Origin: Candidatus Desulfatibia sp.
GTDB lineage: Bacteria; Desulfobacterota; Desulfobacteria; Desulfobacterales; UBA11574
DNA: 47,494 nt
Assembly: GCF_036446775.1 (NCBI RefSeq)
Contig: NZ_JAZFTO010000315.1
Span: 1 to 47,494 of the forward strand
Reading direction: 5' to 3'
Shown: piece after piece, positions 1,971-42,810 of the stretch
How the letters are laid out: each line of letters starts with the position of its first letter
How positions within the stretch are numbered: the first letter of the stretch is position 1
Notes under the pieces: generated by a model
The model's input: the letters and a program-made list of their open reading frames with translations, nothing else
What the model was told of the DNA's origin: nothing
Databases searched by the model: none
Translations under genes and position numbers: made by a program

Positions 1971-2133
1971 TTCGACAAAAAAATGACACCCACCCGTTAT
2001 GGATTGACATGATCTAAGTTTCTCCTTTTCTATTCCGCCTACCAAATATATTATTTAACCTATTAATATCAATATATTATTCAGTTATTACCGCCGGGCG
2101 GGTTCTCTGGCACAATATTTGAATATCAGTATT

Positions 2134-2339
2134 GATGAATTCGTAAAAAATCGAATTCATCCGATATTTGGTGTTTTCAGCCGTCGTAGCTACTTGGGCG
2201 AAGTCTGCTAGTACTTAGTGTTTTGCGTCGAATATATACTGATATACCAGTTCGTTAAATAGCCAAATACTAAACACCGTCAGACTTGGCCCAAGCAGCT
2301 GCCGACTTCGCCAAAGTAGCTTTAGCTACGACGGCTGAA
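2134..2339. repeat. Structured intergenic element: 10-bp-stem AATT hairpin followed by a long imperfect inverted repeat
   Basis: Hairpin gatgaattcg-taaaaaat-cgaattcatc (2134-2161). The inverted repeat has a perfect 17-nt core, ttcagccgtcgtagcta (2176-2192) against tagctacgacggctgaa (2323-2339), and imperfect pairing continues inward. The central loop holds ctgatataccag (2239-2250). Confidence 0.6.
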
Positions 2340-2457
2340 TTACTTACAACGGCTGAAAATACAAAATACTCTCAAAAAAAGTGGCGTTTTGCAAAGGCAT
2401 CTGACGGGATCTACGCGAGACCTTTGACAATCTGCGGGGCATTGCAAGTTAAAAAGA

Positions 2458-19324: not shown

Positions 19325-24774
<5,450 letters not shown>

Positions 24775-28980: not shown

Positions 28981-30990
28981 TTAGAGAAGGTTTAAGTTCC
29001 AATTCCAAAGTCCGGGCCTTTTTTTCATTTTCACTCCCCTGGGTAAGGGTTCAATCAGATGTACAAACAGACTGTAACCTGCTTTCATTAATAAATCCTG
29101 CTGGGCCCTGATGTCCAGTTCCCAGTTGGGGAACATCCAATAGTCTGAACCATATTGTCGAACCCAGGCTTGCTCGCCCTTGGGGCTGGTAAACGGTTGC
29201 TTGGTTTTCAAATTTTCCACAAGTGTGCGCGATACGCATAAAGGCCAGTTGCCGGCTGTAACGATACCTACCGGCAGGGGGCTGTGCTTGGGCAGTAATA
29301 AATAATCTTCCCGTCCCAGTTCCGGACTGACGATGACCCCGTTAAATCCCAGAGATACCAGGCTGCTAACCGCGAGAGGATTGGTGATATTGCAAAACGG
29401 ACCGGCCCAGAGATTTAAACCTTTGGCCCCGGTAAAAAGCGCTATCTGCCAGGGGGAATTAAGGACAAAATTCCGTCCCCCCTTTTTAAGGACAAAATCG
29501 ACAACCCCCTTTATTTTGGTCTCAGCTTCAGGCCAGATTACAGGCGGCAACCACCACCAAAGTTTGGACACAAGGCCCCTTTGTATCCCTGCCGGGTTTT
29601 TGATCGGCAGCCAGGTCCCGGTTCGTCCCCGGAGCTTTTTGTTGCCAATCTTTCGGTATACCTTTAGTTCAAAAGCTAAGGATCGTTTTCTGGATCTTTG
29701 CGGCAGCCTGGCACAAAAATTTGAAGCATCTACCTGCGACTTTGGAATTTTGTCAAGCTCACCTTCAAGCGCCGTCAACATATTCTCAAGCGTTTTATCG
29801 CGTCTGTCCGTTAAAAATACCGGAGTCCCCGTGGCGGGACTTTTTTTTGAAACAATTTTTAAAAACAGACGCCCTTTTTTAGGAATGAACCTGCGGACCC
29901 TGCTTTTGCCGTGCCACGGCTCATCCTCATAACCGATGCGCAGGGTATCGCCGCATAAAAGTTCCTCTCTGGCAACAATAAACGGTTTTTCTCTCGTCCC
30001 TTTTACGTTTCCAACAAGCAACCCGGAGCCGGTTTGTACGTCGACTTTGACCGGACTTTGAGGTCTTTGCGGCAAAAAATTATAATGGGTTCCAGTACGC
30101 CCTAAAGCCCCGGCAAGGAGTTGCAGAGCCTCTTTTTTCATTTTAGGATCGCTGCCCTGATCCCTTAACATCCGGTAGGCCTGAACCGTATTAAAAACAT
30201 AATGGGGACCTTTTTTGCGGCCTTCAATCTTCCAGGCCCGCACCTGCGGAATGGACAAAAGAATTTTGACCAGCACATCTACGCTGAGATCCTGGCAGGA
30301 AAAAAATTTGGCGGTCTGCTTGTTGTGCGAATAAAGCCGGCGGCAGGGCTGAACGCATCTGCCCCTAAGGCCGCTCTTTCCGCCCAGATAGCTGCTCCAG
30401 TAGCACCTTCCGGAAATCCCGTAACACAGGGCCCCGTGGATAAATACTTCCAGATCCAACCCCTTTGGACAGGCCAGGGCCAGGGCCTTTATCTCGTCTA
30501 TGGAAAGCTCCCTGGGGATAACGATACGGTCCACATCAAGCTTTTTGCGCACAAGTTTCAAAGCTGCATTAAAGCTTACATTGGCAAGTGTCGATAAATG
30601 CAGCCGGCCGGCATAACCTGTTTGCCCGGCCAGCTGCACAAGGGACAGGTCCTGGATGATTATAGCTTCGGGCTTCACCCGCTTTTTCAATTGTTCCAAA
30701 AATCGACCGGCATGATCCAGATCATCGGGCTTTAACAGTGAGTTTAATGCCACATGGACCTTAATCCCTTTGTCACGTGCCATCTGCGCCAGGGATACCA
30801 GTTCCTCGAGTGAAAAGTTCTTAGCTTCCATGCGGGCCGAAAAGTGCTTCAGTCCCAAATATACGGCGTCGGCCCCGGCCGCCATGGCTGCCAGAAAGGA
30901 TGCTTTATTTCCAACCGGTGCCAGAATGGACGGTTTTAGGGATGGCTCTGTTGCTCGCTTCATACAGGTATTATATTGACTTTTATTCAT
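28981..30990 (-). CDS. U32-family peptidase-like protein (long form with C-terminal extension)
   Basis: 669 aa. ILAPVGNKASFLAAMAAGADAVYLG..FSAR, EVFIHGALCYGISGRCYWSSYLGGKSGLRGRCVQPCR (U32 Cys-rich signature). Confidence 0.85.
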   Translation of the reverse strand: MNKSQYNTCMKRATEPSLKPSILAPVGNKASFLAAMAAGADAVYLGLKHFSARMEAKNFSLEELVSLAQMARDKGIKVHVALNSLLKPDDLDHAGRFLEQLKKRVKPEAIIIQDLSLVQLAGQTGYAGRLHLSTLANVSFNAALKLVRKKLDVDRIVIPRELSIDEIKALALACPKGLDLEVFIHGALCYGISGRCYWSSYLGGKSGLRGRCVQPCRRLYSHNKQTAKFFSCQDLSVDVLVKILLSIPQVRAWKIEGRKKGPHYVFNTVQAYRMLRDQGSDPKMKKEALQLLAGALGRTGTHYNFLPQRPQSPVKVDVQTGSGLLVGNVKGTREKPFIVAREELLCGDTLRIGYEDEPWHGKSRVRRFIPKKGRLFLKIVSKKSPATGTPVFLTDRRDKTLENMLTALEGELDKIPKSQVDASNFCARLPQRSRKRSLAFELKVYRKIGNKKLRGRTGTWLPIKNPAGIQRGLVSKLWWWLPPVIWPEAETKIKGVVDFVLKKGGRNFVLNSPWQIALFTGAKGLNLWAGPFCNITNPLAVSSLVSLGFNGVIVSPELGREDYLLLPKHSPLPVGIVTAGNWPLCVSRTLVENLKTKQPFTSPKGEQAWVRQYGSDYWMFPNWELDIRAQQDLLMKAGYSLFVHLIEPLPRGVKMKKRPGLWNWNLNLL

Positions 30991-31073
30991 CGAATTTATA
31001 TTTATATATAATGTATTTACGAATATTGCAAAGATGGAATAAGTATCCGGCGCACATAATATGAGGGAACCAA

Positions 31074-31499
31074 ATGCCTGTAAAGAAAAGTCCGACAGAC
31101 CGAAGACGTTTCATCTCAATGGTGTCCGGGATGCTTTCCGGTCTCCTGCTGACAAAACCGGGAAGTGTGCGGGCCACAAAATCAGAAATTAAACAATTCC
31201 TGGCAAATATTGAGACTGACTTGCTGGTAAGATCCAAACCCTCAAAGCACCCTGCCGTCACTTGGGAACATTATGGAGACGGAATCCGTCTTTACAAAAA
31301 GAACCAGGTAAAAAATATTCCATTTTGCGCCACGAACCGGGTTGGCAAGACCATCTGGGAACACTGTAACGGCATAAATACTCCCTGGGAGATCTCCGCA
31401 TTTGTTCATCAGAAATATCTTGTCCCCCGCCAACAGGCCTATGCTGAATGCCTTGCTTTCATAGCTGCCCTAAAAACAAAAGAAGCGGTCCTACTGTAA
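31074..31499 (+). CDS. PqqD/RRE-like protein with an N-terminal twin-arginine (Tat) signal peptide
   Basis: 141 aa. SPTDRRRFISMVSGMLSGLLLTKPGSVRA-TK has the RR-x-F-I motif, a mild hydrophobic core and a V-R-A cleavage-type site. The C-terminal ~85 aa have the PqqD layout: beta strands VTWEHYGDGIRLY, then NRVGKTIWEHCNGINTPWEISAFVHQKY....AYAECLAFIAALKTKEAV. Confidence 0.7.
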   Translation: MPVKKSPTDRRRFISMVSGMLSGLLLTKPGSVRATKSEIKQFLANIETDLLVRSKPSKHPAVTWEHYGDGIRLYKKNQVKNIPFCATNRVGKTIWEHCNGINTPWEISAFVHQKYLVPRQQAYAECLAFIAALKTKEAVLL

Positions 31500-31503
31500 G
31501 ACC

Positions 31504-31788
31504 ATGAACGCTGCCCAACGATATATAAAAAATAACAACATCGTTTTCAGAGAAGAGGATGACGGTGCTTTTTTGTTTGATCCGGATTCAGGCAATTTGA
31601 AATACTTGAACAACTCCGCCAAAGAGACCTTTTTGATAATAGACGGTCAAAATGATTTAAACCAGATAGCCAATCGCCTGCTGGAACTATACCCTGATGA
31701 GGACGCCGAACAGGTCCGGAATGATGTGGAAAGTTTCCTGCTGGAACTTTTGTCGAATAGCTTTGTCTTCCATACGGGAAGCAATTAA
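31504..31788 (+). CDS. PqqD-family peptide chaperone (RiPP recognition element)
   Basis: 94 aa. IVFREEDDGAFLFDPDSGNLKYLNNSAKETFLIIDGQNDLNQIANRLLELYPDEDAEQVRNDVESFLLELLSNSFV is a textbook PqqD pattern. It starts 4 nt after the previous stop. Confidence 0.8.
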   Translation: MNAAQRYIKNNNIVFREEDDGAFLFDPDSGNLKYLNNSAKETFLIIDGQNDLNQIANRLLELYPDEDAEQVRNDVESFLLELLSNSFVFHTGSN

Positions 31789-31800
31789 CCCGAGAGACCT

Positions 31801-32889
31801 TTGAAAAAGGAATTTATGGCTAATCAGGAAATAAGCTACCCGCTGACAAGCCTTTATCTTTATCTCACCGATCGCTGTAATCTAAGATGCTCCCACTGTT
31901 GGATCTCGCCCGCATTTTCACAGCTTCAGCAAAACGGCATCCCCTTGGATCCTCTGAAAAAGACAATATCAGATGCCGGAGCATTGGGCCTTAACAGTGT
32001 CAAGCTGACCGGCGGAGAACCGCTTTTATACCGGCAACTGGATGAACTACTCACATTTTTGAAATCAAAAGAATTAACCATTTATATCGAAACAAACGGG
32101 ACCCTGATAGATCAAAAGATGATCAAATCTTTCCAGGCTGCCGGGGTGGAGCAGATTTCCGTCAGCCTGGATGCAGCCACGGAAGAAATTCACAATAAAA
32201 TTAGAGGAATTAAAGGCAGCTATGCTCGCACCTTGCAAGGCCTGCACGATCTTTCCCATAGCGGCTTGCAATTCCAAATTATCATGACTCTCCAGCGCAA
32301 AAACCTCAATGAGATACCGGGTATGGTGCAATTAAGCGAAAAGTTGGGGGCCTGTTCTTTAAAAATAAATCATCTGCTTCCTTGCGGGAGAGGAAAAGAG
32401 GCTTTTGATAAAAAAGAAAATCTGGAATTGGAAGAATTAATCCAACTTTACCGATTAGTACAAGAAAAATGGTTGCGACCGGGCACCATGGAAGTTGATT
32501 TCGATCTTCCAGTGGCGTTAAGGTCTATTGAAGATATCAAACGCAGAGGACTCAATGAATGCCGCATTCTGAATATTCTGGGGATTCTCGCCAACGGAGA
32601 CTTTTCCATCTGCGGCATCGGCCAGACGGTTGAAGAATTGCGCATGGGAAATCTCTCGCACGATTCGGTCGGCAGTGTCTGGCAAAACAATCCTATTCTA
32701 AACGAGCTGCGCCAATCCCTAACCAGCAAGCTTGAAGGAGCCTGCGGAGGCTGTATTTTTAAGTTTCAGTGCCTGGGAGGCTGCCGGGCTAATGCTTACT
32801 CTCTTACCAAGGATCTGCATGCACCGTATTTTTTGTGCCAACAATACTATGAATCCGGACTATTCCCATCATCAAGATATATCAAATGA
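31801..32889 (+). CDS. Radical SAM / SPASM-domain peptide-modifying enzyme (no. 1)
   Basis: CNLRCSHCW (CxxxCxxC). SPASM motifs C...GDFSIC (Gx4C) and CGGCIFKFQCLGGC (Cx2Cx5Cx3C) plus a trailing Cys (FLC). The start is either TTG 31801 or ATG 31816. Confidence 0.9.
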   Translation: MKKEFMANQEISYPLTSLYLYLTDRCNLRCSHCWISPAFSQLQQNGIPLDPLKKTISDAGALGLNSVKLTGGEPLLYRQLDELLTFLKSKELTIYIETNGTLIDQKMIKSFQAAGVEQISVSLDAATEEIHNKIRGIKGSYARTLQGLHDLSHSGLQFQIIMTLQRKNLNEIPGMVQLSEKLGACSLKINHLLPCGRGKEAFDKKENLELEELIQLYRLVQEKWLRPGTMEVDFDLPVALRSIEDIKRRGLNECRILNILGILANGDFSICGIGQTVEELRMGNLSHDSVGSVWQNNPILNELRQSLTSKLEGACGGCIFKFQCLGGCRANAYSLTKDLHAPYFLCQQYYESGLFPSSRYIK

Positions 32890-32892
32890 GAC

Positions 32893-33804
32893 ATGGAACT
32901 AACTATAAACCTGGCCGGAACAAAGATTGATATAATCTTTGCAGGCCGGTCAAATAATGCCATACCTCTGTGTAACCACTACTTCAGGAATTTTATTCAT
33001 CCTAACAGGGGAGAAAGCGCCGCAGTCAAAATAAGTGTCTTAGAAAAAGCAACCGGCAGGTTGCCGGTTCAGGAAACAAACGGGGAACCGATTTTTGAAC
33101 AGCTGCTGTCCACCCCGGATGTGGTCCAATGGCTTAGGGAAGTCCCGCCGTACAGAAAGGATTTCCTCATCGATGAAACCACCATCTGTTCATTTTGCAT
33201 GAACGGACTGCTGCTCTTTAGCCCTGAAACTGCGATTGGACATATCTACCTTTTAAAACCAGGACCCCGGGTGTTCCGACCACTCCACCGGCTGTTATGG
33301 ATTTATTTTGCCCAGGTTCTGGGAGAAAAAAGGGCCTGTTTTGTACATGCCGCGGCATTGACCAGAAAAGCAGGCGGCCACCTTTTTTTTGGAGACTCCG
33401 GGGCCGGTAAAAGTACCCTGGCCGGCGCCTGCGGGCGCGACACCGTAATATCGGATGACAGTCCTGTTTTCCGCAAGCGCAATGGCAAATATCACGTATT
33501 CCCTTCCCCTTATCATCAGATGGGCCGGCTTAAAATTCTTAATAAGGAAACTCCTGACATATGTGCTGAAGTGAAAGGGTTATATTTTCTGGTCAAAGAT
33601 GACAACCTCTCTATTAACAAAATCTCAAAGAAAAAAGCCGTCTCCATGATCATAAACCGCTATATTCTTTTTTTCCCCTATCTTTCACCCCGGGCCAAAA
33701 GGTTGCTATTTGACCTTTTTCTTGAAGCATGCCATAATTTACATACTAATTATCTTCATTATTTGCCAGGCCGGGACGTGTGGAGTGTTATTGCCGACGG
33801 CTAA
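32893..33804 (+). CDS. HPr-kinase-like P-loop protein (HprK-related kinase family)
   Basis: 303 aa. CFVHAAALTRKAGGHLFFGDSGAGKSTLAGACGRDTVISDDSPVF mirrors the HprK core (VH...G.GVL..G.SG.GKS....L...G..L.(A/S)DD). The ATG is 3 nt after the rSAM stop. Confidence 0.75.
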   Translation: MELTINLAGTKIDIIFAGRSNNAIPLCNHYFRNFIHPNRGESAAVKISVLEKATGRLPVQETNGEPIFEQLLSTPDVVQWLREVPPYRKDFLIDETTICSFCMNGLLLFSPETAIGHIYLLKPGPRVFRPLHRLLWIYFAQVLGEKRACFVHAAALTRKAGGHLFFGDSGAGKSTLAGACGRDTVISDDSPVFRKRNGKYHVFPSPYHQMGRLKILNKETPDICAEVKGLYFLVKDDNLSINKISKKKAVSMIINRYILFFPYLSPRAKRLLFDLFLEACHNLHTNYLHYLPGRDVWSVIADG

Positions 33805-33818
33805 AACTGGAGGATGAA

Positions 33819-34217
33819 ATGACAGGCTCAAAAGAAGATAAGCAAACCACCCGGATTCCATATGAACCTCCCCGGCTATTAGATCTGGGCGGAGGGGTTG
33901 CCTATGCTAAAAGAGGAAAAGGAGGAAAAGGAGGTTGCAAGCCTGGTGGTAGCCCGGCGGGCAGGAAATGCAAACCAGGCCAATCGGCTACGGGCAGCCA
34001 ATGCAAACCAGGAGGTACGGCGGGCAGCAAATGCCAATCAGGAGGTGCGGCAGCAGGCGGCGATTGTAGGCCGGGAGGTACGGCAGCAGGTGGGAACTGT
34101 AGGACTGGAACTACGGCGGCAGGTGGGAAATGTCAGCCTGGTGGAACCGCAGGTTCGAAATGCCAAAGTGGAAGTACGGCCGGTGGCAGGTGTCGAACTG
34201 GCGCCACTGTGGGATAA
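33819..34217 (+). CDS. Candidate RiPP precursor peptide, 132 aa: RRE-binding leader plus nine Cys-containing repeat modules
   Basis: GGAGGA (33809-33814), then ATG 33819. Sequence: MTGSKEDKQTTRIPYEPPRLLDLGGGVAYAKRGKGGKGG-CKPGGSPAGRK-CKPGQSATGSQ-CKPGGTAGSK-CQSGGAAAGGD-CRPGGTAAGGN-CRTGTTAAGGK-CQPGGTAGSK-CQSGSTAGGR-CRTGATVG. Leader residues 15-24 fit YxxPxLxxxG. The ORF-track start (GTG 33780) overlaps the upstream gene and is rejected. Confidence 0.65.
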   Translation: MTGSKEDKQTTRIPYEPPRLLDLGGGVAYAKRGKGGKGGCKPGGSPAGRKCKPGQSATGSQCKPGGTAGSKCQSGGAAAGGDCRPGGTAAGGNCRTGTTAAGGKCQPGGTAGSKCQSGSTAGGRCRTGATVG

Positions 34218-34248
34218 TAATAGATAAGATGAAACCTTTGCAAAGGTC

Positions 34249-35415
34249 TCAGAATATAAACGCCCGGTACAAATCGTTACTTACTAAGCTGATAATCTCC
34301 GCAGCCCTTCTGAAGTAACCTGATCTTTTGCCGGACCATGATTTATCTTGGATTATCTGAGCCATTACCTCGTCTTTGGGAAAAACAGTCTCTTTGATAA
34401 ATTTGAGTTTATTACCTGTTCCCTCTAAATTGCAAAGCCACAAGAGATAACAAAGTTCTTCCGAAGAAAAACCCCGGATCTTCAAACGCAGGATATGTTT
34501 TTCCAGGATGCTCAGCCTGTTGATTCCCAGCTCCTGCTTGACCTGCAAGGGTACTTGCAGGTCAAAAATTCTCTCCACCAAAATCAGGGCATAAAGTACA
34601 ATTCTCTCCTGTTGCCAGAATCGGGCTCGTTCTACGACTTCTCCCCATCCGCCGGGGATGCCGGCTAATTCCAGCAGGCATTCATGCAGATCCACCAGCC
34701 AGATCAGCCGGGAATAGCTGTGCTTCAGGGCATGAGCGGCCAAAGCTACAACATTGTCAAAAGGGTCCGGAAGTAAGAGACTATCCTGTTGCTCAAAGAA
34801 GGGTACGGCCCTTTCCCACATGGGGGTAAGGTCGGCCGGAAAGATATACCGCCTATTATGAATGCGGTCCAGATTCAAGATATGGATGTGAATGTCAACT
34901 ATAAAATCACCCTTGTAAAGGATATCCGGATAGGCGGGATTGGTCGCATAGTAACCGGCTTGCCCTAACAATTGTTTAAAACCTTCTTTATGGTCCGGTT
35001 TGACCATAAAGTCCGCATCACCCAGAGGCCTGAGCCCTATGTCGCCGTACATTCTGGTAAGGGCTAAGCCCTGCAGGGCCATAACCGTAAATCCGGCCTG
35101 TTCCAGCTTGTCCGCAAGTGCCCTGGCGTTGGCAATAACTGCCAGGGTATATTCTTTGGTCTGATTATATCTGTTTTCGAGACGTTTTAAGGCCGTTTTC
35201 GAAACAGCATCACAGAGGTCCAGATCTCTCAGGTGGTAATAAAAAAATCCGGCAACCCCGTCCAGTTCCGCCAGCGCCGCTAAATTGTCCCAGGGAACAT
35301 CCTGCTTAACAAAGTGCCGCACATAATCCTTCTCAGCCCGCTTAAGATGCCGCCTCGATACGCAGCGAATAAATTTAACAATCTCCCACCAGCCTACCAT
35401 CATATATCCTCTCAA
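34249..35415 (-). CDS. Uncharacterised nucleotidyltransferase family protein (NTP_transf_5-like)
   Basis: 388 aa. GLRPLGDADFMVKPDH (G..D.D nucleotidyltransferase-type motif) and AAHALKHSYSRLIWLVDL helical domain. This family commonly accompanies HprK-like and PqqD genes. Confidence 0.65.
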   Translation of the reverse strand: MRGYMMVGWWEIVKFIRCVSRRHLKRAEKDYVRHFVKQDVPWDNLAALAELDGVAGFFYYHLRDLDLCDAVSKTALKRLENRYNQTKEYTLAVIANARALADKLEQAGFTVMALQGLALTRMYGDIGLRPLGDADFMVKPDHKEGFKQLLGQAGYYATNPAYPDILYKGDFIVDIHIHILNLDRIHNRRYIFPADLTPMWERAVPFFEQQDSLLLPDPFDNVVALAAHALKHSYSRLIWLVDLHECLLELAGIPGGWGEVVERARFWQQERIVLYALILVERIFDLQVPLQVKQELGINRLSILEKHILRLKIRGFSSEELCYLLWLCNLEGTGNKLKFIKETVFPKDEVMAQIIQDKSWSGKRSGYFRRAAEIISLVSNDLYRAFIF

Positions 35416-35433
35416 AAAGTGAGACCTTTGATC

Positions 35434-36528
35434 TTAGCCGGGAAGTCGTCCTCCTGCTTTTAAAAACCGTTTTAGACAGGCATCGGGACTTGGATGATTT
35501 TCATTTCCCAGAATCAAATATGCCAGGGCCGGACAGTTCCCCGTACAATAGTCGATATATTCGCAGCCTTTGCAAAATTCAAAATCGCTCAAAGGAATAT
35601 TGTAGCGTCCTCTCAATCGCTTAAGCTCCGGATGTTTTTGCCAAACCGTTTTGAGATCATCCCGATTGATGCGCCCCAATTCAATATGGCTCATCTGAAT
35701 GCACGGCACCAGTACTCCGTCAGCCCGCACGGCCATCGTATTCATCGGTCCGCCGCAAGCTGAAAGATATCCTCCCTCAAAGTCATCTTTTTCTCCGGTC
35801 CGCCGGGCCTCTTCCATCATATTCCAACTACCGGCCTCGGCTAAGGGGCCTGCGGTGGCGCTGATTCTTCCGTTGTATTTTTCACTTAAGTTTAAAAGCT
35901 CCTCCATCGCCATACTACGCTCTTCAACCGTAAGTTGGACCTGTTCGGCATTCCGGCGGCAAAGTCCCATATATGACGCCGCATTGGTAGAAAAATCATC
36001 AAGTCCGATATCTTCCAGCAGCAGACGGGCAATTCTATCCAACTCTCTGACATTTTTTCTGTGAATGGTAACCCTTACGGATACAGAGACACCGTGTCTT
36101 TGCAAGCACTTGATGCCCTCGATTGCTTTGAAGAAATTCCCCCGGCCCCGAAAAGCGTCATGGGTCAGCGGTATGGAGCCGTCGATGGAGACTTGAACGC
36201 CGTCGCAGCGCCCGGTCGAAGCTAAAAAAGCGGCCGTTTCATCCGCAATCAACGTGCCGTTACTTAATATATCGAACCGCATCCGGTTGCTGACAATCCC
36301 TGCTACAATTTGCCTCAAATCCTCCCGATAAAAAGGCTCTCCGCCCTGAAGAGTCACATGCAGGACCGCGCATCGATTCAACTCCTCGAAAAACTTGAGC
36401 CATTCTTCAGCGGGCAGGTCCCGGCCCACATCGCCCGCTCCGGAAAAATGGCTGCAATACTTACATCGCAGATTACACCTGTTTGTTATAGCCAGGTCCA
36501 GTGCTCTTGGCGTCTTCATTATCTTCAT
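35434..36528 (-). CDS. Radical SAM / SPASM-domain peptide-modifying enzyme (no. 2)
   Basis: 364 aa. CNLRCKYC (CxxxCxxC), GGEP motif. SPASM motifs CGGPMNTMAVRADGVLVPC (Gx4C) and CKGCEYIDYCTGNC (Cx2Cx5Cx3C) plus a distal Cys (PDAC). Confidence 0.9.
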   Translation of the reverse strand: MKIMKTPRALDLAITNRCNLRCKYCSHFSGAGDVGRDLPAEEWLKFFEELNRCAVLHVTLQGGEPFYREDLRQIVAGIVSNRMRFDILSNGTLIADETAAFLASTGRCDGVQVSIDGSIPLTHDAFRGRGNFFKAIEGIKCLQRHGVSVSVRVTIHRKNVRELDRIARLLLEDIGLDDFSTNAASYMGLCRRNAEQVQLTVEERSMAMEELLNLSEKYNGRISATAGPLAEAGSWNMMEEARRTGEKDDFEGGYLSACGGPMNTMAVRADGVLVPCIQMSHIELGRINRDDLKTVWQKHPELKRLRGRYNIPLSDFEFCKGCEYIDYCTGNCPALAYLILGNENHPSPDACLKRFLKAGGRLPG

Positions 36529-36540
36529 AAAATATTCGGG

Positions 36541-37929
36541 TTAGAATGATGAAAAAGATACTCGCTTGGCCGGTTCAGGACTTGATACTTCCGCCTTTTC
36601 CAGTTGGGGCAGGACCGTAATAATGCCGACCATAAACCAGAAAGGCTCCATAATGCGGACAATTATAAATGTGTTGGCCCCGAGGGCGTGAAACAGAAGA
36701 CCGGTGAGACCGGCCAGAAAACCGATGGTCAGTCCTTGAAGATAAGGAGTTTTAAGTTCCTTTAAATTAATAATTGCTAATTTAAAGATAGAATATAAAA
36801 GATAGATAAATGCCGTTAATCCGATAACACCCGTCTCCACCAGCACCCTCGGAAACTGCGCATCTAAGAACCTGTATCCGGTAACGCCGTATCCGAACAC
36901 AGGATGTTTGGTCCAGTCACGCAATGCATCTTGCCAGCTCCTTAACCTGGCCGAGGTGGAAGTGTCCAACCTCACATCACCTACAGTAACTTGCTGGCCA
37001 GGATGTTCGCGTTGCGTAAAAGTAAAACTGATTCTCTCTTTAACCGTCGAGGGAAGCAAAAGGGGGCTTAATGCTAAAAAAAGAAGCATTAGGCCGACAA
37101 TTATAACCCTCTTTTCAGACATCAGACCTAAAACCAGGCACGCGGGGATGAACGCCAGATAAGAAGCTCTGGACTGCGTAAAAAGCAAAGGGGGTATAAT
37201 GGCAACTATCAGAACGGCAAGCAACTGCTTTGACAACAATTTTTCAACCTTTGAAAACAATCCTGCGGTAATTGCCCCTATAAATACAAGGTATCCTCCC
37301 ATAGTGTTGGGTTCGCCGACTTCACCTTCAAACGGCGCAGAGACTCTGCCTCCGCCAGGAATCTGCAGCATCCCGATGATCGATACCACAAAACCTGTAA
37401 GCAACAAACATATCAAAAATCGATTTGCCTGCTTCAGGTTTGCAACATGATTGACTATCATAAAAAAGACGATCATGTATTCAAAATATTTTACAACAAA
37501 GAAAAAACCGGTTGTGGGAGATACTCTGCCGGCCATGATGCCGAATCCGGTTGATATAATGCATGCCAACATATAAAAAAGAATGGGCTTATTCAATGGC
37601 GTTTTCAAAACCAGCCCCAGCTCCTTGTGAACCGCGGTTTTGGCAAACCAACTGAAACCGATAACAACCAGCAGAAAGTCTTCCAGCCGCACAGTTACAC
37701 CTCTTCCGAGAGAGGCCCCCTCGGTCGTACCTACCATGATTTCAGGCGACAGCAGCATGGAAAAAATTAAGATATACAAGCCCCACTCTATGTTGATAAA
37801 GGCCACAGCAAAGATTATCAAAGCTATTAGGCCCTGAAATAGTAGGGGGGAATACATATATTGTGATGAAAGAAAGCCCAAAAAAAGGGCAACAGCCAGA
37901 AATGATATGGTCAATAAAAAGGATCGCAC
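36541..37929 (-). CDS. O-antigen ligase / Wzy_C-family polytopic membrane protein
   Basis: About 10-12 predicted TM helices. Wzy_C-type segment LLFTQSRASYLAF and periplasmic loop ...ARLRSWQDALRDWTKHPVFGYGVTGY. The ORF track extends to 38046 and overlaps the upstream gene by 115 nt. I prefer GTG 37929, 2 nt after the upstream stop; ATG 37857 is an alternative. Confidence 0.75.
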   Translation of the reverse strand: MRSFLLTISFLAVALFLGFLSSQYMYSPLLFQGLIALIIFAVAFINIEWGLYILIFSMLLSPEIMVGTTEGASLGRGVTVRLEDFLLVVIGFSWFAKTAVHKELGLVLKTPLNKPILFYMLACIISTGFGIMAGRVSPTTGFFFVVKYFEYMIVFFMIVNHVANLKQANRFLICLLLTGFVVSIIGMLQIPGGGRVSAPFEGEVGEPNTMGGYLVFIGAITAGLFSKVEKLLSKQLLAVLIVAIIPPLLFTQSRASYLAFIPACLVLGLMSEKRVIIVGLMLLFLALSPLLLPSTVKERISFTFTQREHPGQQVTVGDVRLDTSTSARLRSWQDALRDWTKHPVFGYGVTGYRFLDAQFPRVLVETGVIGLTAFIYLLYSIFKLAIINLKELKTPYLQGLTIGFLAGLTGLLFHALGANTFIIVRIMEPFWFMVGIITVLPQLEKAEVSSPEPAKRVSFSSF

Positions 37930-37931
37930 AA

Positions 37932-40220
37932 TTAAAATATATCTTGCCAGAATATTCCTAACACCAGCAAAGCCAGCGTTATGATGAGTACTACTATGGT
38001 CAAGGGTTTTATTTGAAACGCAGGCGGCAAATGTTCTTGAAACCATCTTGTTATGGAACTGCTTTGTTTATCTTCTATATCTTCTTCCGACCCATAATAA
38101 TACTGAGTATGATACTTGAAATAATCAGGACCGGCCTCCGCCTTCACGTTGTTTAAGACGACACCCCATACATTGGCATTGATATTGTCCAGGGTCGTTT
38201 TAGCGCGTTTCAATACCCCCCGGCCAATTTTTCCCACTGTGTAGACCATGACAACACCGTCTACATGCGGTCCGATTTCGGTGGCATCAACTACAGGCAA
38301 AATCGGGGGGGAATCTATAATGATGATATCATAGCTTTGATAAGCCTTCTGTAAAAGTTCAACAAACCGTTTTGAACGTAAGATTTCAGCCGGGTTGGGC
38401 GGTTTTGTTCCGGCAGTGATGATATTAAGGTTGTCCAGCCCCGGGGTTTTCAGAATTTCCTCTAATTCAAAATCTCCCAGCATGATATCTGTAATGGTAT
38501 TTATGATATCTTTATACTGATAGTTTCCCAGAACGCAATCCGTCAAACCGGGTCCTTTTTCCAATCCAAAAATCTTATGGATTACAGGTTTGCGCAAATC
38601 CGCCTCCAACAGCAGTACTCTGCTGCCCGCTTGAGCCATACTGAGCGCCAGGTTGACCGCGTTAAAGGTTTTTCCTTCTCGCACAAAAGAGCTGGTAATC
38701 AGAAACGATTTTCCTTGTTTGTCCAGACTCATAAACTCAATGTTCGATCTGAGAGTGCGGAAGGCTTCCGCGGATAAGGACTTGGGATCATAGTGAGTAA
38801 CCAATTCCCGTTCTCTTCCTGTTTCTAAAACCTGTTGACTATCACGGCTCTTGCCCGTCTCCACTTTCCCCATAAAAGGTATAACTCCCAGGACCGGAAC
38901 CTGTAGTAAATTCTCCACATCCTCTATGGTCCCCATGGAAGTATCAAACACCTCAGCGCCAAAAGCAAAAACAAACCCTACGATCAAACCCATAATAATG
39001 CCCGTAAAGATAATCATCATTTTAGAAGAGACATTGAAAGGAGCCGCAGGCACCAAAGCCGGTTTAACAATGACAACCTCCTCCACTTTGCCAGACTCCT
39101 TAATCAGGGTCTCCTGGTGTTTGGTTTTCAATTGGGAATATAAAGATTCCTGTAGTTGCACCTCTCTTTGCATTCTGACCAGCTTCAGAGCCTTTTCCGG
39201 AAGGCTCCGGCTCTCTTTCCTCAAACGATTCAGCTTTGTTAAAAGATCAGCTTCGCGTTTTGCTAAAATACTTGAAAAGGCCTCAAGCTCTTTTCTTATC
39301 TCAAGAATTATGGCTTGAATCTGATCATTTACCCCGACTACCTGCGGATGCTCTTTAGTAAAGTCAATCAGCAGGGTTTCCCTCTTTAAAAGCAAATCGC
39401 TCAGTTTGACCCTCAATGCATGTATAGGAGAATCTTTGTCCGGGGCAATCAAGGTTCTATTAAATTTTTCCGGAGACAAATCAGTCTTTTCTGCGATCAG
39501 TTTTAATAGCGATACAACTTCATTTTTTTGTTTTTTTGCCTTCTCATGCTCTAATTCAACATCGTACAACCGATTTAACGTATTGCTGGTTTGAGCATCC
39601 ATGGATATCAAGGCATAGCCTTCCTTAAAGGCCCGGAGTTCATCCTCTGCCTGTTGTAGGAGATTTGAGGTCAACTGCAGCTGCTTTTCGATAAAGGCCT
39701 TGGTTTCGAATGTCTTCCTGTTTTTCTCCTGGATATTGTAATTCCTATATGCTCTGGTAACAGCGTTTGCTACAAGTGCCGCTTCCTGGGCATCTCTCGA
39801 TATTACTCTGATATTAATGATATTGGTACCAGGCTCCTGTTCCGCTTTTATTAAAGCCTTCAGACGCTGGACCTTGGCCAAAAGGGATTTGGAATTGCGA
39901 ATCTTTTCAGCGGAAATATTCTTAGGAATCCAATCTAACTCCTTTGCTGTTTGTGACAGTACCGGGAAACTGGTAATAATATAAGCATGCGTAATCAGAT
40001 TTTCCGATTCCTCAAAAAATCCACCCATAAAAAAGTCCGCCATGGTTTTGGTGCGTTCGATTTTAATGGCGGCACTGGCTTCATATAAAGGAACGGGCTC
40101 ATTCAATTTTGCAAAGCCATAGCTGAAGACCCCGGCCAAAAAAGTCAGCAGTACAATAATGGTCTTTCTCTTTCTGATGATCCGCCAGTAATCTCTCAGA
40201 TCGACGTCATATTGAGCCAT
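37932..40220 (-). CDS. Polysaccharide co-polymerase / tyrosine autokinase (second Wzc-like protein) with an extra C-terminal TM segment
   Basis: 762 aa. DLRDYWRIIRKRKTII Wzz-type N-terminus, coiled-coil periplasmic domain. Kinase motifs: Walker A SSFVREGKT, A' LLEADLRKP, B IIIDSPP. Tyr cluster YFKYHTQYYYGSEED, then LTIVVLIITLALLVLGIFW. Confidence 0.85.
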   Translation of the reverse strand: MAQYDVDLRDYWRIIRKRKTIIVLLTFLAGVFSYGFAKLNEPVPLYEASAAIKIERTKTMADFFMGGFFEESENLITHAYIITSFPVLSQTAKELDWIPKNISAEKIRNSKSLLAKVQRLKALIKAEQEPGTNIINIRVISRDAQEAALVANAVTRAYRNYNIQEKNRKTFETKAFIEKQLQLTSNLLQQAEDELRAFKEGYALISMDAQTSNTLNRLYDVELEHEKAKKQKNEVVSLLKLIAEKTDLSPEKFNRTLIAPDKDSPIHALRVKLSDLLLKRETLLIDFTKEHPQVVGVNDQIQAIILEIRKELEAFSSILAKREADLLTKLNRLRKESRSLPEKALKLVRMQREVQLQESLYSQLKTKHQETLIKESGKVEEVVIVKPALVPAAPFNVSSKMMIIFTGIIMGLIVGFVFAFGAEVFDTSMGTIEDVENLLQVPVLGVIPFMGKVETGKSRDSQQVLETGRERELVTHYDPKSLSAEAFRTLRSNIEFMSLDKQGKSFLITSSFVREGKTFNAVNLALSMAQAGSRVLLLEADLRKPVIHKIFGLEKGPGLTDCVLGNYQYKDIINTITDIMLGDFELEEILKTPGLDNLNIITAGTKPPNPAEILRSKRFVELLQKAYQSYDIIIIDSPPILPVVDATEIGPHVDGVVMVYTVGKIGRGVLKRAKTTLDNINANVWGVVLNNVKAEAGPDYFKYHTQYYYGSEEDIEDKQSSSITRWFQEHLPPAFQIKPLTIVVLIITLALLVLGIFWQDIF

Positions 40221-40234
40221 TGCCGAAAACCTTC

Positions 40235-40503
40235 CTAATTGAGCTAAAACTCAATTAGGTGTTATCCGTTATTTGTTATTAGTTATTGGTTTTAAGTGAA
40301 AGATAAACAGAATTATACCCTAATCGAGCCAAAATTCGATTAGGCGTCTGTGGTCAGCTGTCCGTAGTCAGTGGTTTTACAGGTTCTTAGGGCCTCTTTT
40401 TGTGTTTCACCTGTAGTTGAAATATAATCTCGCTTCTTAAAGCTTAGCAACGGACGACGGACAAAGGACAACGGACACCCAATTGAGCGTTATCGCTCAA
40501 TTG
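40235..40503. repeat. Composite structured intergenic element: three AATT-stem hairpins interleaved with heptamer arrays
   Basis: Hairpins: ctaattgag-ctaaaa-ctcaattag (40235-40258), ctaatcga-gccaaaat-tcgattag (40320-40343), caattgagcg-ttat-cgctcaattg (40480-40503). Arrays: gttatcc/gttattt/gttatta/gttattg (40261-40288), gtctgtg/gtcagct/gtccgta/gtcagtg (40346-40373) and the complementary-type acggacg/acggaca/aaggaca/acggaca (40450-40477). Confidence 0.6.
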
Positions 40504-40508
40504 AAATA

Positions 40509-42680
40509 CTATTTTGTCAATATATCAGCAGCACTGTCAAAGCCTTTAATGATGGTAGTAGGCATAAGGATAAGTTCCATAAAGGGCTTAATTCGCTTAA
40601 CAAACAGGTTTGCATCACCGATAAAACTTCGCGGTACAAACACCAGATCTCCGTTTGTCAGGGCAACATTCTGGGTCTGGTCGCCTTCCTCCATAAGTTT
40701 TTTAAGATCAGCAGAAATGACCTCGGGTCTGGTGGGGTCCCCCCTGATAATCTTGGTACTGTCCTCATGCGCGAATACGGTAACGCCCCCGGCCTGTGAA
40801 ACGACATCCAGCAGGCGCATCTCTGAACCGCTAAAAGCATATACGCCCGGCTTGCCCACTTCACCAAAGATATACACCCGATTGTCCTCTTTGGTAATAA
40901 GGGGAATATAAATTACATCACCGCTATCCAGCACCACATCCTGGCCGGTTTCACCCCGTAAAATAGCATTGAACAGGTTCAATTTTAATACCTGCCCTTT
41001 CTTGCGGCGCAAACCTACTTCAGCCAGATTGGCGTCTTGATGCAAGCTAACGTTCTGGGAAAATATTTCCACGATTGTAGTCCGGCCGGTCAGATAGTTT
41101 TTACCTCCGCCGGTTCTGCCAGCCCAGGCCGCTCCCGGCCCTAAAACTGTTACGAATTTGCTTTTATATTCCTTGACTATAACGTCCACCCGGGGATTTC
41201 TTATATACTTGACAAGCCTGCCGGTTATAATATCATCCACCTGCGAGGCGGTAAATCCGTTGACATAAAGATTGTCCACCATGTTAAACGAAATTTTGCC
41301 CGCAGGCCTAACCGTTATTAGTTCTCTGGTCGCAGTAGGTCCTTTCCACAAAGTTATTTCAATAACATCGCCGGGCCCGATTTTATACTCCGGAACCCCG
41401 GATACAGTTGTAAAGACACTGTTTTCTTCAAGTTCGGCAGAAATCGAAGGAAGTTCCGGAGCGGCAACTTTCTGTGCTTGGCGGACTCTCGATGAAACGA
41501 CACCCTTTTCTTTTCCCAGCCAGATTTTGATGCCCTCTCCAAAGCCGGCAGCACAGATATCATCGCGCCCGTCTTTATCTAAATCGGCGATCTCGATTCC
41601 ATAGAAGATACCTTTGGATGGGAACCGCCCTTTGATGGGCGTCCAGGAATCTGATCCTGCGTTTTTCCAGGCCTTGATCCCCTTAGAATTTACGGAACCG
41701 GCCAGAAGATCCATCAGACCGTCTCCATCCAGGTCAACAGCAAGGGCTTGCCAGAAGCTGTCGTTTTCTTCCAGACTCGATGTGCCGATGAAGTCTCCGC
41801 GTCCATCTCCTATAAAAATCTGAACACCTTTTCTGTAAGAGCCGGCTAATAAATCCAGCTTGCCGTCAGCGTTAACGTCTCCAACGCTCAGACCATAAAA
41901 ACTGCCTTTACGTACCGGTAAAGTCGACGACCAGCCCCCGGTACCGTCTCCGAGCCAGACCTTCAAAGCGCCATAGCTGCCCCAGCCGGCTCCCGCCAGG
42001 TCCAAAAACCCGTCTTGATCAAAATCAGCCAACGCTACATCCATGAAAATCCCTGTAACCGTAGGACCCGACTCCATAAGCCAGGCGCCTTTTCCATCTC
42101 CCAGCCAGACCTGAATACCGCCTTGGGTATCCGAGGTCGCATTGGCGGCAATGATATCCATATGTCCATCCCCATTAACATCAGCCGTCTCCACGCCCTC
42201 GTAGTTATTTATTTCGACAGGGTTGATACCTCTGAGCCACCTGCGCTCGGACTGATTCAACCACACCATAATTCCCGAGGCTTCTCTTTGAACGGACAGC
42301 ACGATATCCTTAAGTCCGTCTTCATCGAAATCCGCCACGGCAACGGATCTAACATCCCCTTTGAACGGCAGGTATTGAGGTGCAGACATATTACCGGAGC
42401 CGTCCCCATACCAGATAGCTACAGTCCCGGGGAATGTACTCCCTCCGACGATATCCGGATTACCATCGTTGTCCAGATCAGATACGGCCACCGCCCGGTA
42501 TTTTCCTGATGTGGCCAGGTCGCCGGCTTTGGCCCATTGAGCCGGTTGTTCTTGGCCTATATCTTGAGCACACCCAATAGTTAATATAAGCCCCAGCAAT
42601 CCCACATGAAACAGCAGAATTTTATAAAGGGACCTTCCAGTTTTATTAAAGTTCCTTTTCCACATTTTATAGATATACAA
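40509..42680 (-). CDS. Lipoprotein fusing a seven-repeat FG-GAP/VCBS beta-propeller to a Wza-type polysaccharide export module (Poly_export + SLBB)
   Basis: 723 aa. Signal plus Cys (LGLILTIGCAQD). Seven D-x-(D/N)-x-D-G-x-x-D repeats (DLDNDGNPD, DFDEDGLKD, DVNGDGHMD, DFDQDGFLD, DVNADGKLD, DLDGDGLMD, DLDKDGRDD). Then YKIGPGDVIEITLW (Poly_export signature) and two SLBB-like units (FVTVLG..., VYIFGEVGKPGVY...). Confidence 0.8.
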   Translation of the reverse strand: MYIYKMWKRNFNKTGRSLYKILLFHVGLLGLILTIGCAQDIGQEQPAQWAKAGDLATSGKYRAVAVSDLDNDGNPDIVGGSTFPGTVAIWYGDGSGNMSAPQYLPFKGDVRSVAVADFDEDGLKDIVLSVQREASGIMVWLNQSERRWLRGINPVEINNYEGVETADVNGDGHMDIIAANATSDTQGGIQVWLGDGKGAWLMESGPTVTGIFMDVALADFDQDGFLDLAGAGWGSYGALKVWLGDGTGGWSSTLPVRKGSFYGLSVGDVNADGKLDLLAGSYRKGVQIFIGDGRGDFIGTSSLEENDSFWQALAVDLDGDGLMDLLAGSVNSKGIKAWKNAGSDSWTPIKGRFPSKGIFYGIEIADLDKDGRDDICAAGFGEGIKIWLGKEKGVVSSRVRQAQKVAAPELPSISAELEENSVFTTVSGVPEYKIGPGDVIEITLWKGPTATRELITVRPAGKISFNMVDNLYVNGFTASQVDDIITGRLVKYIRNPRVDVIVKEYKSKFVTVLGPGAAWAGRTGGGKNYLTGRTTIVEIFSQNVSLHQDANLAEVGLRRKKGQVLKLNLFNAILRGETGQDVVLDSGDVIYIPLITKEDNRVYIFGEVGKPGVYAFSGSEMRLLDVVSQAGGVTVFAHEDSTKIIRGDPTRPEVISADLKKLMEEGDQTQNVALTNGDLVFVPRSFIGDANLFVKRIKPFMELILMPTTIIKGFDSAADILTK

Positions 42681-42754: not shown

Positions 42755-42810
42755 AGTATCGAGTATCGAGCATCAAGCATCAAGTATCGAGCATCAAGTA
42801 TCAAGTATCA
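42755..42810. repeat. Eight in-phase heptamer repeats AG(T/C)ATC(G/A)
   Basis: agtatcg agtatcg agcatca agcatca agtatcg agcatca agtatca agtatca. The last unit overlaps the stop codon of the ExeA-like gene. The array lies upstream of the FG-GAP/Wza gene. Confidence 0.8.

Follow-up and report, generated by a model that had tools for sequence, protein, structure and literature searches.

A divergent and rearranged SynChlorMet-type peptide cassette in Candidatus Desulfatibia sp. includes a PqqD-fold protein with a predicted twin-arginine signal

Gene content of the locus

The DNA analysed here is a stretch of 47,494 nt from Candidatus Desulfatibia sp. (assembly GCF_036446775.1, contig NZ_JAZFTO010000315.1, forward strand), referred to below as the window. 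The subject is a compact cluster at positions 31074-36528 that appears to encode a pathway for a peptide that is synthesized ribosomally and modified post-translationally (RiPP). Seven open reading frames (ORFs) are arranged convergently, with five on the plus strand facing two on the minus strand, and the plus-strand genes are separated by gaps of only 4, 12, 3 and 14 nt in order. The first plus-strand gene encodes a 141-aa RiPP recognition element (RRE) of the PqqD fold that carries a predicted twin-arginine translocation (Tat) signal (31074..31499; Pfam PqqD, 31.6 bits), and the second a cytoplasmic PqqD/RRE protein of 94 aa (31504..31788; 44 bits), both above the Pfam PqqD cutoff of 23.4 bits. 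They are followed by a 362-aa ScmF-like radical S-adenosylmethionine (SAM)/SPASM protein (31801..32889; TIGR04251, 329.9 bits), a 303-aa ScmC-like P-loop protein of the HPr-kinase fold assigned through a family profile, which is a putative peptide Ser/Thr kinase (32893..33804), and a 132-aa ScmA-like precursor peptide recognized by its homologues, its ribosome-binding site and its synteny (33819..34217). On the minus strand lie a 388-aa NTP_transf_5 enzyme of the nucleotidyltransferase fold (34249..35415; PF14907, 149.8 bits) and the 364-aa radical SAM/SPASM protein ScmE (35434..36528; TIGR04250, 616.6 bits). Radical_SAM and SPASM were both matched by Pfam in the 362-aa and the 364-aa proteins.

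An earlier interpretation made from the letters of this DNA alone (the sequence-only reading) had described a RiPP-like cluster of five packed plus-strand genes converging on two minus-strand genes. The ORFs and gaps confirm this layout, its labels for the proteins (Tat-PqqD, PqqD, two radical SAM/SPASM enzymes, an HprK-like protein, an NTP_transf_5 protein and a Cys-repeat precursor) all hold, and the RiPP-like assignment is supported by the results given below. Missing components were sought among all window ORFs of at least 150 aa outside the annotated genes and among the small genes of the cluster. No lasso cyclase, B2 protease, ATP-binding cassette (ABC) exporter, peptidase or sulfatase was found among these scanned ORFs. 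The sequence-only reading had already pointed to the missing cyclase, B2 protease, exporter and peptidase, and the lack of the last two sets the subtype apart.

Some details of the gene calls should be mentioned. The ScmF-like gene has a TTG start, with an alternative ATG 5 codons further downstream, and the NTP_transf_5 gene probably starts at 35403, by analogy with a 97%-identical homologue of 384 aa. A palindrome, TGAAACCTTTGCAAAGGTCTCA (34230..34251), sits between the convergent precursor and NTP_transf_5 genes and could form a bidirectional terminator hairpin, as a consensus-level match only. A sigma-70-like site (TTGACC, 17 nt, TG-CATAAT; 10/12 matches) at 33710-33738 on the plus strand, within the 3' end of the ScmC-like gene and ~80 nt 5' of the precursor ATG, may be an internal promoter that boosts the precursor; the regional count of sigma-70-like sites is not above chance. 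A promoter and terminator scan of the region gave site counts no higher than the shuffled expectation, and the window gave no match in Rfam or tRNA scans.

Relation to the SynChlorMet cassette

The SynChlorMet (SCM) cassette, a RiPP-type pathway known by bioinformatic definition only, is represented in TIGRFAMs/NCBIfam by the models TIGR04248-TIGR04252 (ScmD, ScmC, ScmE, ScmF and ScmA). The 364-aa protein scores 616.6 bits with TIGR04250 against a cutoff of 400, its residues 6-363 aligning to model positions 1-358. Because of this match, SCM is the correct family, and the label "orphan" given to the cluster in the sequence-only reading has to be dropped. The other proteins fall below the curated cutoffs. 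TIGR04251 (ScmF) is the best hit of the 362-aa protein and aligns end to end, with 329.9 bits against a cutoff of 400, and TIGR04248 (ScmD) is the best hit of the 94-aa protein, with 33.4 bits against 100; the Tat-signal RRE has no hit to TIGR04248. The 303-aa protein reaches 17.1 bits with TIGR04249 (ScmC; cutoff 125), its only NCBIfam matches being those at E ~1e-3 to HprK_rel_B and ScmC, and the window peptide gives no hit at E <= 0.01 to TIGR04252 (ScmA; cutoff 35 bits). The co-oriented order ScmD-ScmE-ScmF-ScmA-ScmC followed by a soluble S26 peptidase, which is a pattern in the canonical loci analysed and no curated rule, is not seen in the window, where two convergent operons occur and no S26 gene is present. 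From the sequence comparisons described here, we conclude that the cluster is a real, conserved, rearranged and divergent subtype of the SCM cassette.

Two other systems named in the sequence-only reading, the GeoRSP system and the HprK-related kinase A/B families, share gene content with the window, namely PqqD, radical SAM/SPASM and HprK-like proteins; GeoRSP also pairs PqqD with radical SAM/SPASM and has no assigned substrate. All scores with their models are below the curated cutoffs. The two radical SAM proteins give 137 and 119 bits with GeoRSP_rSAM (TIGR04303; cutoff 400), geo_PqqD (TIGR04302) gives 23.4 bits against 100, HprK_rel_B (TIGR04355) gives 20.1 bits against 200, and HprK_rel_A (TIGR04352) gives no hit. 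PqqD_rel_X (TIGR04353) reaches 28.8 bits, the cutoff being 35. The SCM models score higher for both radical SAM proteins and for the second PqqD, while for the HprK-like protein the models on both sides are close to noise. Since the GeoRSP and HprK-A/B models are all far below cutoff, the locus is SCM-related and not GeoRSP, and membership in the GeoRSP, HPr-rel-A or HprK-related kinase A/B systems is scarcely credible. An anti-phage defence system was also considered and rejected, PADLOC having shown only a generic likeness of the radical SAM core to viperins. A lasso peptide cluster was rejected as well: the Asn-synthetase-like cyclase and the B2 protease are absent from the scanned ORFs, and the likeness to such clusters is limited to the RRE fold and the YxxPxL leader.

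Canonical and window-type architectures

Homologous loci fetched from other genomes (given here L numbers) were compared by searching all of their six-frame ORFs with the window proteins and a hidden Markov model (HMM) of the peptide. A genome scan with ScmE found 33 orthologous loci of 56-92% identity in Desulfobacterota, Nitrospirota, Chlorobium, Omnitrophota, Victivallales, Saganbacteria and a Methanotrichaceae archaeon. About 25 of the loci have the canonical architecture, in which ScmD, ScmE, ScmF, one or more small Cys peptides, ScmC and S26 follow one another, usually with NTP_transf_5 and an ABC exporter behind them. Representative canonical members pass the curated cutoffs (ScmC 171-312 bits; ScmD 109; ScmF 582-620, measured with TIGR04251 in L026 and L035). 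The canonical S26 protein, a soluble one, has SMNP and GDN boxes and no membrane segment; the canonical NTP_transf_5 proteins score 151-229 bits, and the ABC exporter was confirmed. It is noted that NTP_transf_5 and the ~600-aa exporter are regular members of canonical loci (L030, 16348-17601; L011, 12619-13695; L035, 14948-16252 and 16451-18307). Our scans returned no Scm-named NCBIfam model for the window's own NTP_transf_5 homologue or for the canonical S26-like proteins.

In the window-type architecture the order is Tat-PqqD, PqqD, ScmF-like, ScmC-like and peptide, facing NTP_transf_5 and ScmE, with ScmD added in some loci. It is found in eight distinct loci (the window, L001, L006, L008, L017, L045, L046/47 and L048/49), and L013 and L002/3 are hybrids. 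The second PqqD of 94 aa is kept at the same position in all window-type loci. S26 genes were found at 15 canonical loci, whereas the eight window-type loci have none; the Tat-signal RRE occurs in no canonical locus, and the two were never found together in the loci compared. Ten canonical loci have an ABC exporter, as opposed to one of the eight window-type loci (L001).

The window thus has in common with the canonical cassette an ScmE orthologue above cutoff, two radical SAM/SPASM proteins, PqqD-type RREs, an HprK-fold protein of the ScmC type, NTP_transf_5, a precursor with a Y/W-x-x-P-x-L leader and C-x-x-G-x-x-A repeats, and a linkage to polysaccharide genes. It differs in that its ScmF-, ScmC-, ScmD- and ScmA-like members are below their cutoffs, that its genes form two convergent operons, that it has neither a soluble S26 peptidase nor an ABC exporter, and that it carries an extra RRE with a twin-arginine signal. 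The window precursor is also about twice as long (nine repeats versus typically 3-5 Cys), cationic, and nearly free of hydrophobic residues. Judged by these comparisons, what is new is the architecture, in which the peptidase is missing, the exporter is missing in all but one locus, and a Tat-signal RRE is present instead. The system itself is not categorically new; the signal-bearing RRE is genuinely unexpected.

The precursor peptide

The precursor gene has a GGAGGA ribosome-binding site 6 nt before the ATG at 33819. Its product begins with the leader MTGSKEDKQTTRIPYEPPRLLDLGGGVAYA, continues with a short KRGKGGKGG spacer, and ends in a core of nine repeats of the form C-x-x-G-x-[S/T/A]-[A/P]-x-x-x-(x), the nine Cys being spaced 10-11 residues apart; TRF detects a 30/33-nt DNA periodicity beneath these repeats. 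The core consists of only G, A, T, C, S, K, P, R, Q, D, N and V, has no F, W, Y or H, and carries a net charge of +11.

Database searches gave 32 homologues, all unnamed, with E-values down to 7e-24, a similarity far beyond chance. Their leader consensus is MTxSKDxxxxTRIPYEPPRLFDLGGGVAYA. In the alignment of the 32 sequences, Y15, P18 and the Cys/Gly columns are invariant, and E16, L20, D22, L23, GGG, A28 and A30 are nearly so. The homologues carry 4-9 Cys repeats, the window peptide having the most. Over 196 repeat units, Gly stands at +3 in 100% and Ala or Pro at +6 in 91%, with a Cys-Cys spacing of 10 or 11 residues in 156 of 163 intervals; the conserved Gly(+3) and Ala/Pro(+6) point to an enzyme recognition unit. 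The precursor gene adjoins the enzyme genes in L001, L002/3, L006, L008, L013, L017 and L045-L049, so that the conservation next to homologous clusters on which the sequence-only reading had staked its precursor is indeed observed. By these measures of conservation, the 132-aa ORF is a genuine precursor. One homologue, P0006 (leader NEYVAPMLLSLGGGGVAYA; L050, 10001-10354), lies on a 14.6-kb contig with no SCM enzymes in reach; it could be an orphan or could work with a cluster farther away.

The peptides encoded beside canonical ScmF have a [Y/W]-x-x-P-x-L leader and C-x-x-G-x-x-A units. When the profile of the window-type peptides was aligned by hhalign to that of the ScmA-like peptides of canonical cassettes, a probability of 97.9% and an E-value of 6e-13 were obtained over both leader and core, and three of the canonical-cassette peptides come near TIGR04252 (27-28 bits against the cutoff of 35). 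We therefore regard the window ORF as a divergent, expanded ScmA. A defined precursor had been expected in the sequence-only reading to be new information. This is only partly so: the database curators had already proposed an SCM precursor with TIGR04252, which limits the novelty, and the window peptide is a divergent and longer relative of the ScmA-like peptides of canonical cassettes. Hydrophobicity is lower in the window-type than in the canonical cores (6.7% vs 12.5%; p = 0.002), and the charge is more positive (+4 vs -1; p = 3e-5). Four or five tandem ScmA-like genes are present in some canonical loci (L011, 7761-9011; L018, 9083-12272; L019, 4832-9161), with extra ScmC copies interleaved in L018 and L019, which suggests diversification of precursor and kinase.

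The RRE with a predicted twin-arginine signal

The N-terminus of the 141-aa protein is DRRRFISMVSGMLSGLLLTKPGSVRA, of which residues 1-34 have the features of a twin-arginine signal (RRRF, a weakly hydrophobic h-region and VRA). With its S/T-R-R-x-F-L-K-type motif, moderately hydrophobic h-region and AxA site, it is predicted to be a Tat signal; its Kyte-Doolittle hydropathy stays below 1.6 in every 19-residue stretch. In the fetched loci, each homologue has [S/G]-R-R-x-F-[I/V] together with a stretch of weak hydrophobicity and a site resembling AxA. A word-indexed search for the family reached close relatives only, and an exhaustive profile search of representatives was used instead. It returned 209 representatives at 50% clustering, with 55 scoring below 1e-10. 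Among the full-length representatives that were checked, a single one departs from the RRxF-type pattern, having RRMF followed by Ser; those otherwise lacking the motif are truncated at the N-terminus, and the h-region and AxA are found in every full-length representative. In an alignment of 41 sequences reaching down to 25% identity, only R10, R11, P56 and N88 are invariant.

In the AlphaFold2 (AF2) model, the signal is disordered, the linker is helical, and residues 55-141 form a domain modelled with confidence (predicted local distance difference test score, pLDDT, >90). The best PDB match of this domain is the lasso RRE TbiB1 with its leader (5v1u/5v1v), with a template modelling (TM) score of 0.79-0.81; other matches are the lasso B1 protein 6jx3 and PqqD (5sxy; TM score 0.69). 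TbiB1 binds a YxxPxL leader, and lasso leaders carry this motif. A YxxPxL-type motif, Y-E-P-P-R-L, is likewise present in the leader of the window precursor. The likeness in fold and leader motif is accompanied by a clear difference: known RREs are cytoplasmic and without a signal peptide, whereas the Tat-signal RRE has a signal of ~35 residues and a helical linker of ~20 residues. The conserved helical linker between signal and RRE domain (residues 33-54; window 31170-31235) has no counterpart in known RREs. In this region, E47, L50, L51, S54 and P56 are invariant among close homologues, P56 being so across the family.

Window-type loci have no S26 peptidase and, with one exception, no ABC exporter; we therefore propose the Tat-signal RRE as a carrier, which may replace the usual protease and exporter. 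The Tat pathway is reported to tolerate small unstructured cargo only when the cargo is hydrophilic. The mutual exclusion of the Tat-signal RRE and S26, with an ABC exporter beside that RRE at a single locus, and the hydrophilic, cationic cores of the window-type peptides are what an RRE ferrying the peptide through Tat would predict. In hitch-hiker export (PMC4273604, PMC10924467), one partner only carries the signal and a signal-less partner is exported with it as a complex. Hydrogenase small and large subunits and PaoABC resemble the proposed system in having the twin-arginine signal on only one partner; their cargoes are folded cofactor enzymes, unlike the modified peptide held by its leader that would be the cargo here. 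Hitch-hiker export of the peptide is offered as a tentative idea, which we think doubtful.

The radical SAM enzymes and the putative decorating enzymes

The two radical SAM proteins have CxxxCxxC at C26/30/33 and C18/22/25, and each has seven C-terminal SPASM Cys, including CxxCx5CxxxC; the motif check bears out the Cys motifs that the sequence-only reading had described for both. The closest solved structures are PqqE, SkfB and CteB for the ScmF-like protein and SkfB and PqqE for ScmE, and the nearest ones across both proteins are the peptide maturases SkfB, PqqE, CteB and SuiB. ScmE is conserved equally in canonical and window-type architectures. The ScmF-like orthologues of window-type loci score 418-560 bits to the window protein, while canonical ScmF reaches ~260-300 bits. 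A sulfatase maturase was among the candidates rejected, as no sulfatase was found among the scanned ORFs and anSME was only a distant PDB match.

Streptide- or PQQ-type aromatic cross-links are impossible, as the core has no aromatic residue. Formation of Cys-based thioethers by these enzymes, an economical guess which the sequence does not decide, has in our estimate about an even chance. Ranthipeptides (PapB/freyrasin, CteB/thermocellin, SCIFF) and sactipeptides (SkfB, AlbA) resemble the window system in their RRE-dependent radical SAM/SPASM enzymes, auxiliary clusters and Cys-rich precursors, and two of their maturases, SkfB and CteB, figure in the above list of nearest solved structures. 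In freyrasin, each copy of a repeated Cys motif makes one small ring. The differences are that the PapB, StsB, SkfB and AlbA models give only 68-114 bits against cutoffs of 300-850 (PapB, 83 and 68 bits vs 340; StsB, 94-114 vs 625; SkfB, 81-83 vs 300), that two maturases are always paired in the window system, and that its repeats conserve Gly and Ala/Pro rather than Asp/Asn/Thr. The chemistry cannot be read from the sequence; as the ScmF-like protein scores on AhbD/NirJ-type models as well as on peptide maturases, one enzyme of the pair may act otherwise than by forming thioethers.

The ScmC-like protein contains the P-loop GDSGAGKS (GxxGxGKS) at 167-174. Searches of the PDB with single sequences of this protein and of NTP_transf_5 found nothing useful, and a family profile or AF2 models were needed. 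Over 70 residues, a profile of 14 ScmC and ScmC-like members matches two structures of HPr kinase/phosphorylase, 2qmh and 1jb1 (E = 1.2e-4), whereas its ABC-transporter matches span only the 25-residue P-loop. Although the ScmC-like protein and canonical ScmC are only 14-20% identical, they have the invariant His, the P-loop and DD in common, H152, G172, K173, D188 and D189 being invariant in the alignment, and close homologues of the window protein carry PF27840 ScmC. We take the arrangement of H152, the P-loop and D188-D189 to resemble the HprK active site. NTP_transf_5 has >120 orthologous clusters, and its residues D133, D135, D174, H176 and H178 are invariant. Its DxD...D triad is intact, and its AF2 model (pLDDT 90.8) best matches the O-nucleotidyltransferases ANT(2'')-Ia and LnuA.

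In lasso clusters, the kinase PsmK phosphorylates a Ser, and the nucleotidyltransferase-like PsmN then puts a hexose on the phosphate (PMC9266682). The window cluster resembles those of PsmK/PsmN (pseudomycoidin) and PadeK (paeninodin) in placing an HprK-like kinase and an NTP_transf_5-type enzyme beside a PqqD-type RRE and a YxxPxL leader. It differs in lacking the lasso cyclase and B2 protease, in having radical SAM enzymes as the class-defining maturases, and in that its peptide ends in Gly and not in Ser. By this analogy, decoration of the peptide by the kinase and the nucleotidyltransferase would be an evenly balanced proposition.

Exopolysaccharide context and a possible exchange of the cassette

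A gene for an O-antigen-ligase-like Wzy_C membrane protein (36541..38046, minus strand; Pfam Wzy_C, 43 bits, with weak PEP_O_lig_1 and TfpM matches) shares the strand of scmE and lies immediately upstream of it at a gap of 12 nt; it is preceded by a gene for a Wzc-type chain-length determinant/tyrosine autokinase (37932..40220, minus strand). Farther upstream in the direction of the operon are genes for a Poly_export/SLBB protein (40509-42680, minus strand), a pepcterm_ATPase-like protein of the PEP-CTERM type (42808-43605) and a WecA-like protein (46110-47270). With scmE and NTP_transf_5 coming after Wzc and Wzy_C on one strand, the exopolysaccharide operon, as read from gene order, continues downstream into scmE and NTP_transf_5, and the cluster is most likely co-transcribed with and evolutionarily linked to the exopolysaccharide genes. 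Ca. Desulfatibia vada (L036) shows the order Wzc-WzyC-ScmE as well. In at least 10 loci (L002-L006, L008, L013, L023, L045, L048) the cassette has a WecA-like gene directly beside it, and a further seven (L007, L014, L017, L032, L034, L035, L036) have Wzc, export or ATPase genes no more than 10 kb away. By a rough estimate, this linkage is far above the expectation for random 20-kb windows.

The nearest relative, Ca. Desulfatibia vada (L031, L036), has flanks of 84-91% DNA identity, which correspond to 28987-30927 (U32 peptidase) and 35437-40255 (Wzc, Wzy_C and the 5' part of scmE) of the window. The identity drops to 72.6% in the 3' part of scmE, and the interior at 30928-35436 has no DNA match in D. 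vada, whose own interior instead reads ScmE-PqqD-ScmF-ScmC-peptide-S26-methyltransferase (PRMT-like)-ABC-NTP_transf_5. With conserved flanks around a replaced interior, the two versions look like interchangeable cassettes at one chromosomal site, and the recombination junction appears from the identity profile to be inside scmE. It should be mentioned that the D. vada locus is split over two contigs, whose adjacency the exchange reading assumes.

Proposed pathway and alternatives

Considering the family assignments, motifs and modelled folds together, we propose that an SCM-type pathway with RRE-guided cross-linking, decoration and Tat hitch-hiker export best explains the cluster, with a probability of roughly 0.6; that it is an SCM-family RiPP pathway with the 132-aa ORF as its substrate we consider very probable. 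A PqqD-fold RRE would bind the Y-E-P-P-R-L motif of the leader, as judged from the YxxPxL-binding TbiB1. All nine C-x-x-G-x-[S/T/A]-[A/P] units would then be substrates of ScmE and the ScmF-like enzyme; by comparison with sactipeptides and ranthipeptides, the likeliest reaction is one that links the sulfur of each Cys, as a thioether, to a carbon of the backbone or of a side chain in the repeat to which this Cys belongs. The HprK-fold ScmC-like kinase may next phosphorylate Ser/Thr of the core, after which NTP_transf_5 may add a nucleotidyl or glycosyl group, both steps being modelled on PsmK/PsmN. Finally, the Tat-signal RRE would carry the bound, very hydrophilic and cationic product over the membrane as a hitch-hiker, and the leader would be cut at the conserved GGGVAYA junction, which is of the AxA type.

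Several points weigh against this proposal. Four of the five partner proteins score below the curated SCM cutoffs, and the ScmF-like protein scores as well on AhbD/NirJ-type models (124-169 bits) as on peptide maturases. The window-type locus L001 has an ABC exporter nearby as well as a second ScmC and peptide set, and other window-type loci have a third PqqD (ScmD; 72-96 bits to L026 ScmD) beside ScmE, which the window lacks. Literature searches found no paper on SynChlorMet or on ScmA together with radical SAM and no experiment on any SCM cassette, so that each reaction and transport step given above is one that we infer. No precedent was found for a Tat-exported RRE, nor any paper linking Tat signals and RREs, and the RRE-Finder paper and a 2025 RRE paper make no mention of SCM, HPr or Tat. 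Cleavage at AYA by an S26-type peptidase or LepB is a conjecture, and the signal might serve to bring the RRE into the periplasm for a task other than export.

This last possibility amounts to the same SCM-type pathway with a Tat-signal RRE that works in the periplasm and not as an exporter, either presenting the leader of a peptide delivered by an unlinked transporter to an enzyme such as the adjacent Wzy_C-family ligase, or serving as an immunity factor or leader sink. A final location outside the cytoplasm is predicted for the RRE, the separate cytoplasmic PqqD (of which other loci have two) can serve the radical SAM enzymes, and the Wzy_C gene lies next to scmE. Against this, no alternative exporter was found in seven of the eight window-type loci, and Wzy_C is adjacent only in the window and L036 and not in other window-type loci; we consider a periplasmic role unlikely. 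A further alternative is that the peptide is a building block of the exopolysaccharide matrix, which joins or primes the glycan of the WecA/Wzy_C/Wzc machinery as a peptide-glycan conjugate. The same-strand position of scmE and NTP_transf_5 directly after Wzc and Wzy_C, the WecA-like and other export genes at loci elsewhere, the hexose transfer to peptide phosphate by PsmN-type enzymes (PMC9266682) and a core rich in Ser, Thr, Ala and Gly with a charge of +11 all fit such a role. Some loci (L046/47) have no glycan genes nearby, though, the conserved core set includes no glycosyltransferase, and the linkage could stem from shared regulation or island structure, which leaves a matrix building block quite unlikely. 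The matrix idea can be combined with hitch-hiker export into a single scheme, in which the RRE is the Tat export vehicle of a cross-linked, phospho-decorated peptide that is released at AxA and then incorporated into the matrix or glycosylated by the co-transcribed exopolysaccharide machinery; this scheme is speculative and rather unlikely as a whole. Neither the Tat-export idea nor the matrix role is established.

Two further alternatives concern the chemistry. The Cys may remain free thiols in a secreted metal-binding or redox-active peptide, with the radical SAM enzymes making other changes, for example epimerisation. Nine single Cys within a flexible Gly-rich chain would suit this, as would the established habit of Tat to export cofactor-loaded proteins, but a single Cys every 10-11 residues is unlike the CxC/CxxC clusters of known metal-binding peptides, and Gly(+3) and Ala/Pro(+6) are fixed relative to each Cys, so that we rate this reading as improbable. 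The two SPASM enzymes might also have a non-peptide function, as a sulfatase maturase or a tetrapyrrole/cofactor enzyme, with the small ORF being incidental. The AhbD/NirJ-type scores of the ScmF-like protein and the distant anSME match (33 bits) could be read in this way. None of these scores comes anywhere near its cutoff, the scanned window ORFs yielded no sulfatase or tetrapyrrole gene, and the enzymes are always accompanied by two RREs and a conserved YxxPxL-leader peptide. A non-peptide assignment with sulfatases nearby, named in the sequence-only reading as what would undo its proposal, is not what the scans returned, and this alternative is disfavoured as very improbable.

The SCM cassette has been in TIGRFAMs/NCBIfam for more than a decade, and the window makes the system testable, being a clean, complete and compact version whose unusually long nine-repeat substrate offers a handle on the function of ScmE and ScmF. 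If the Tat-signal RRE does replace the peptidase and the exporter, it would constitute a new secretion route for RiPPs and a new class of Tat cargo. The repeated linkage to exopolysaccharide genes suggests a matrix or glycoconjugate role rather than the usual antimicrobial one; if so, a ribosomal peptide would be a component of the extracellular matrix and not a diffusible antibiotic.

Other features of the window

The 723-aa protein encoded at 40509-42680 (minus strand) has five FG-GAP repeats fused to the Poly_export/SLBB (Wza-like) module, an unusual combination. A second pair of Poly_export/SLBB and Wzc-type tyrosine-kinase genes lies at the other end of the window (837-4791, plus strand), and at least two polysaccharide export sets are therefore present within 47 kb. 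Inside the polysaccharide locus, a 704-aa protein (43772-45886, minus strand) combines an HD_5 domain of the HD-GYP type with a peptidoglycan-binding SPOR domain at its C-terminus. A 1254-aa protein (19325-23089, plus strand) has glutamine-amidotransferase and SIS domains (GlmS-like) in its middle part only, flanked by ~330 N-terminal and ~500 C-terminal residues without a Pfam match.

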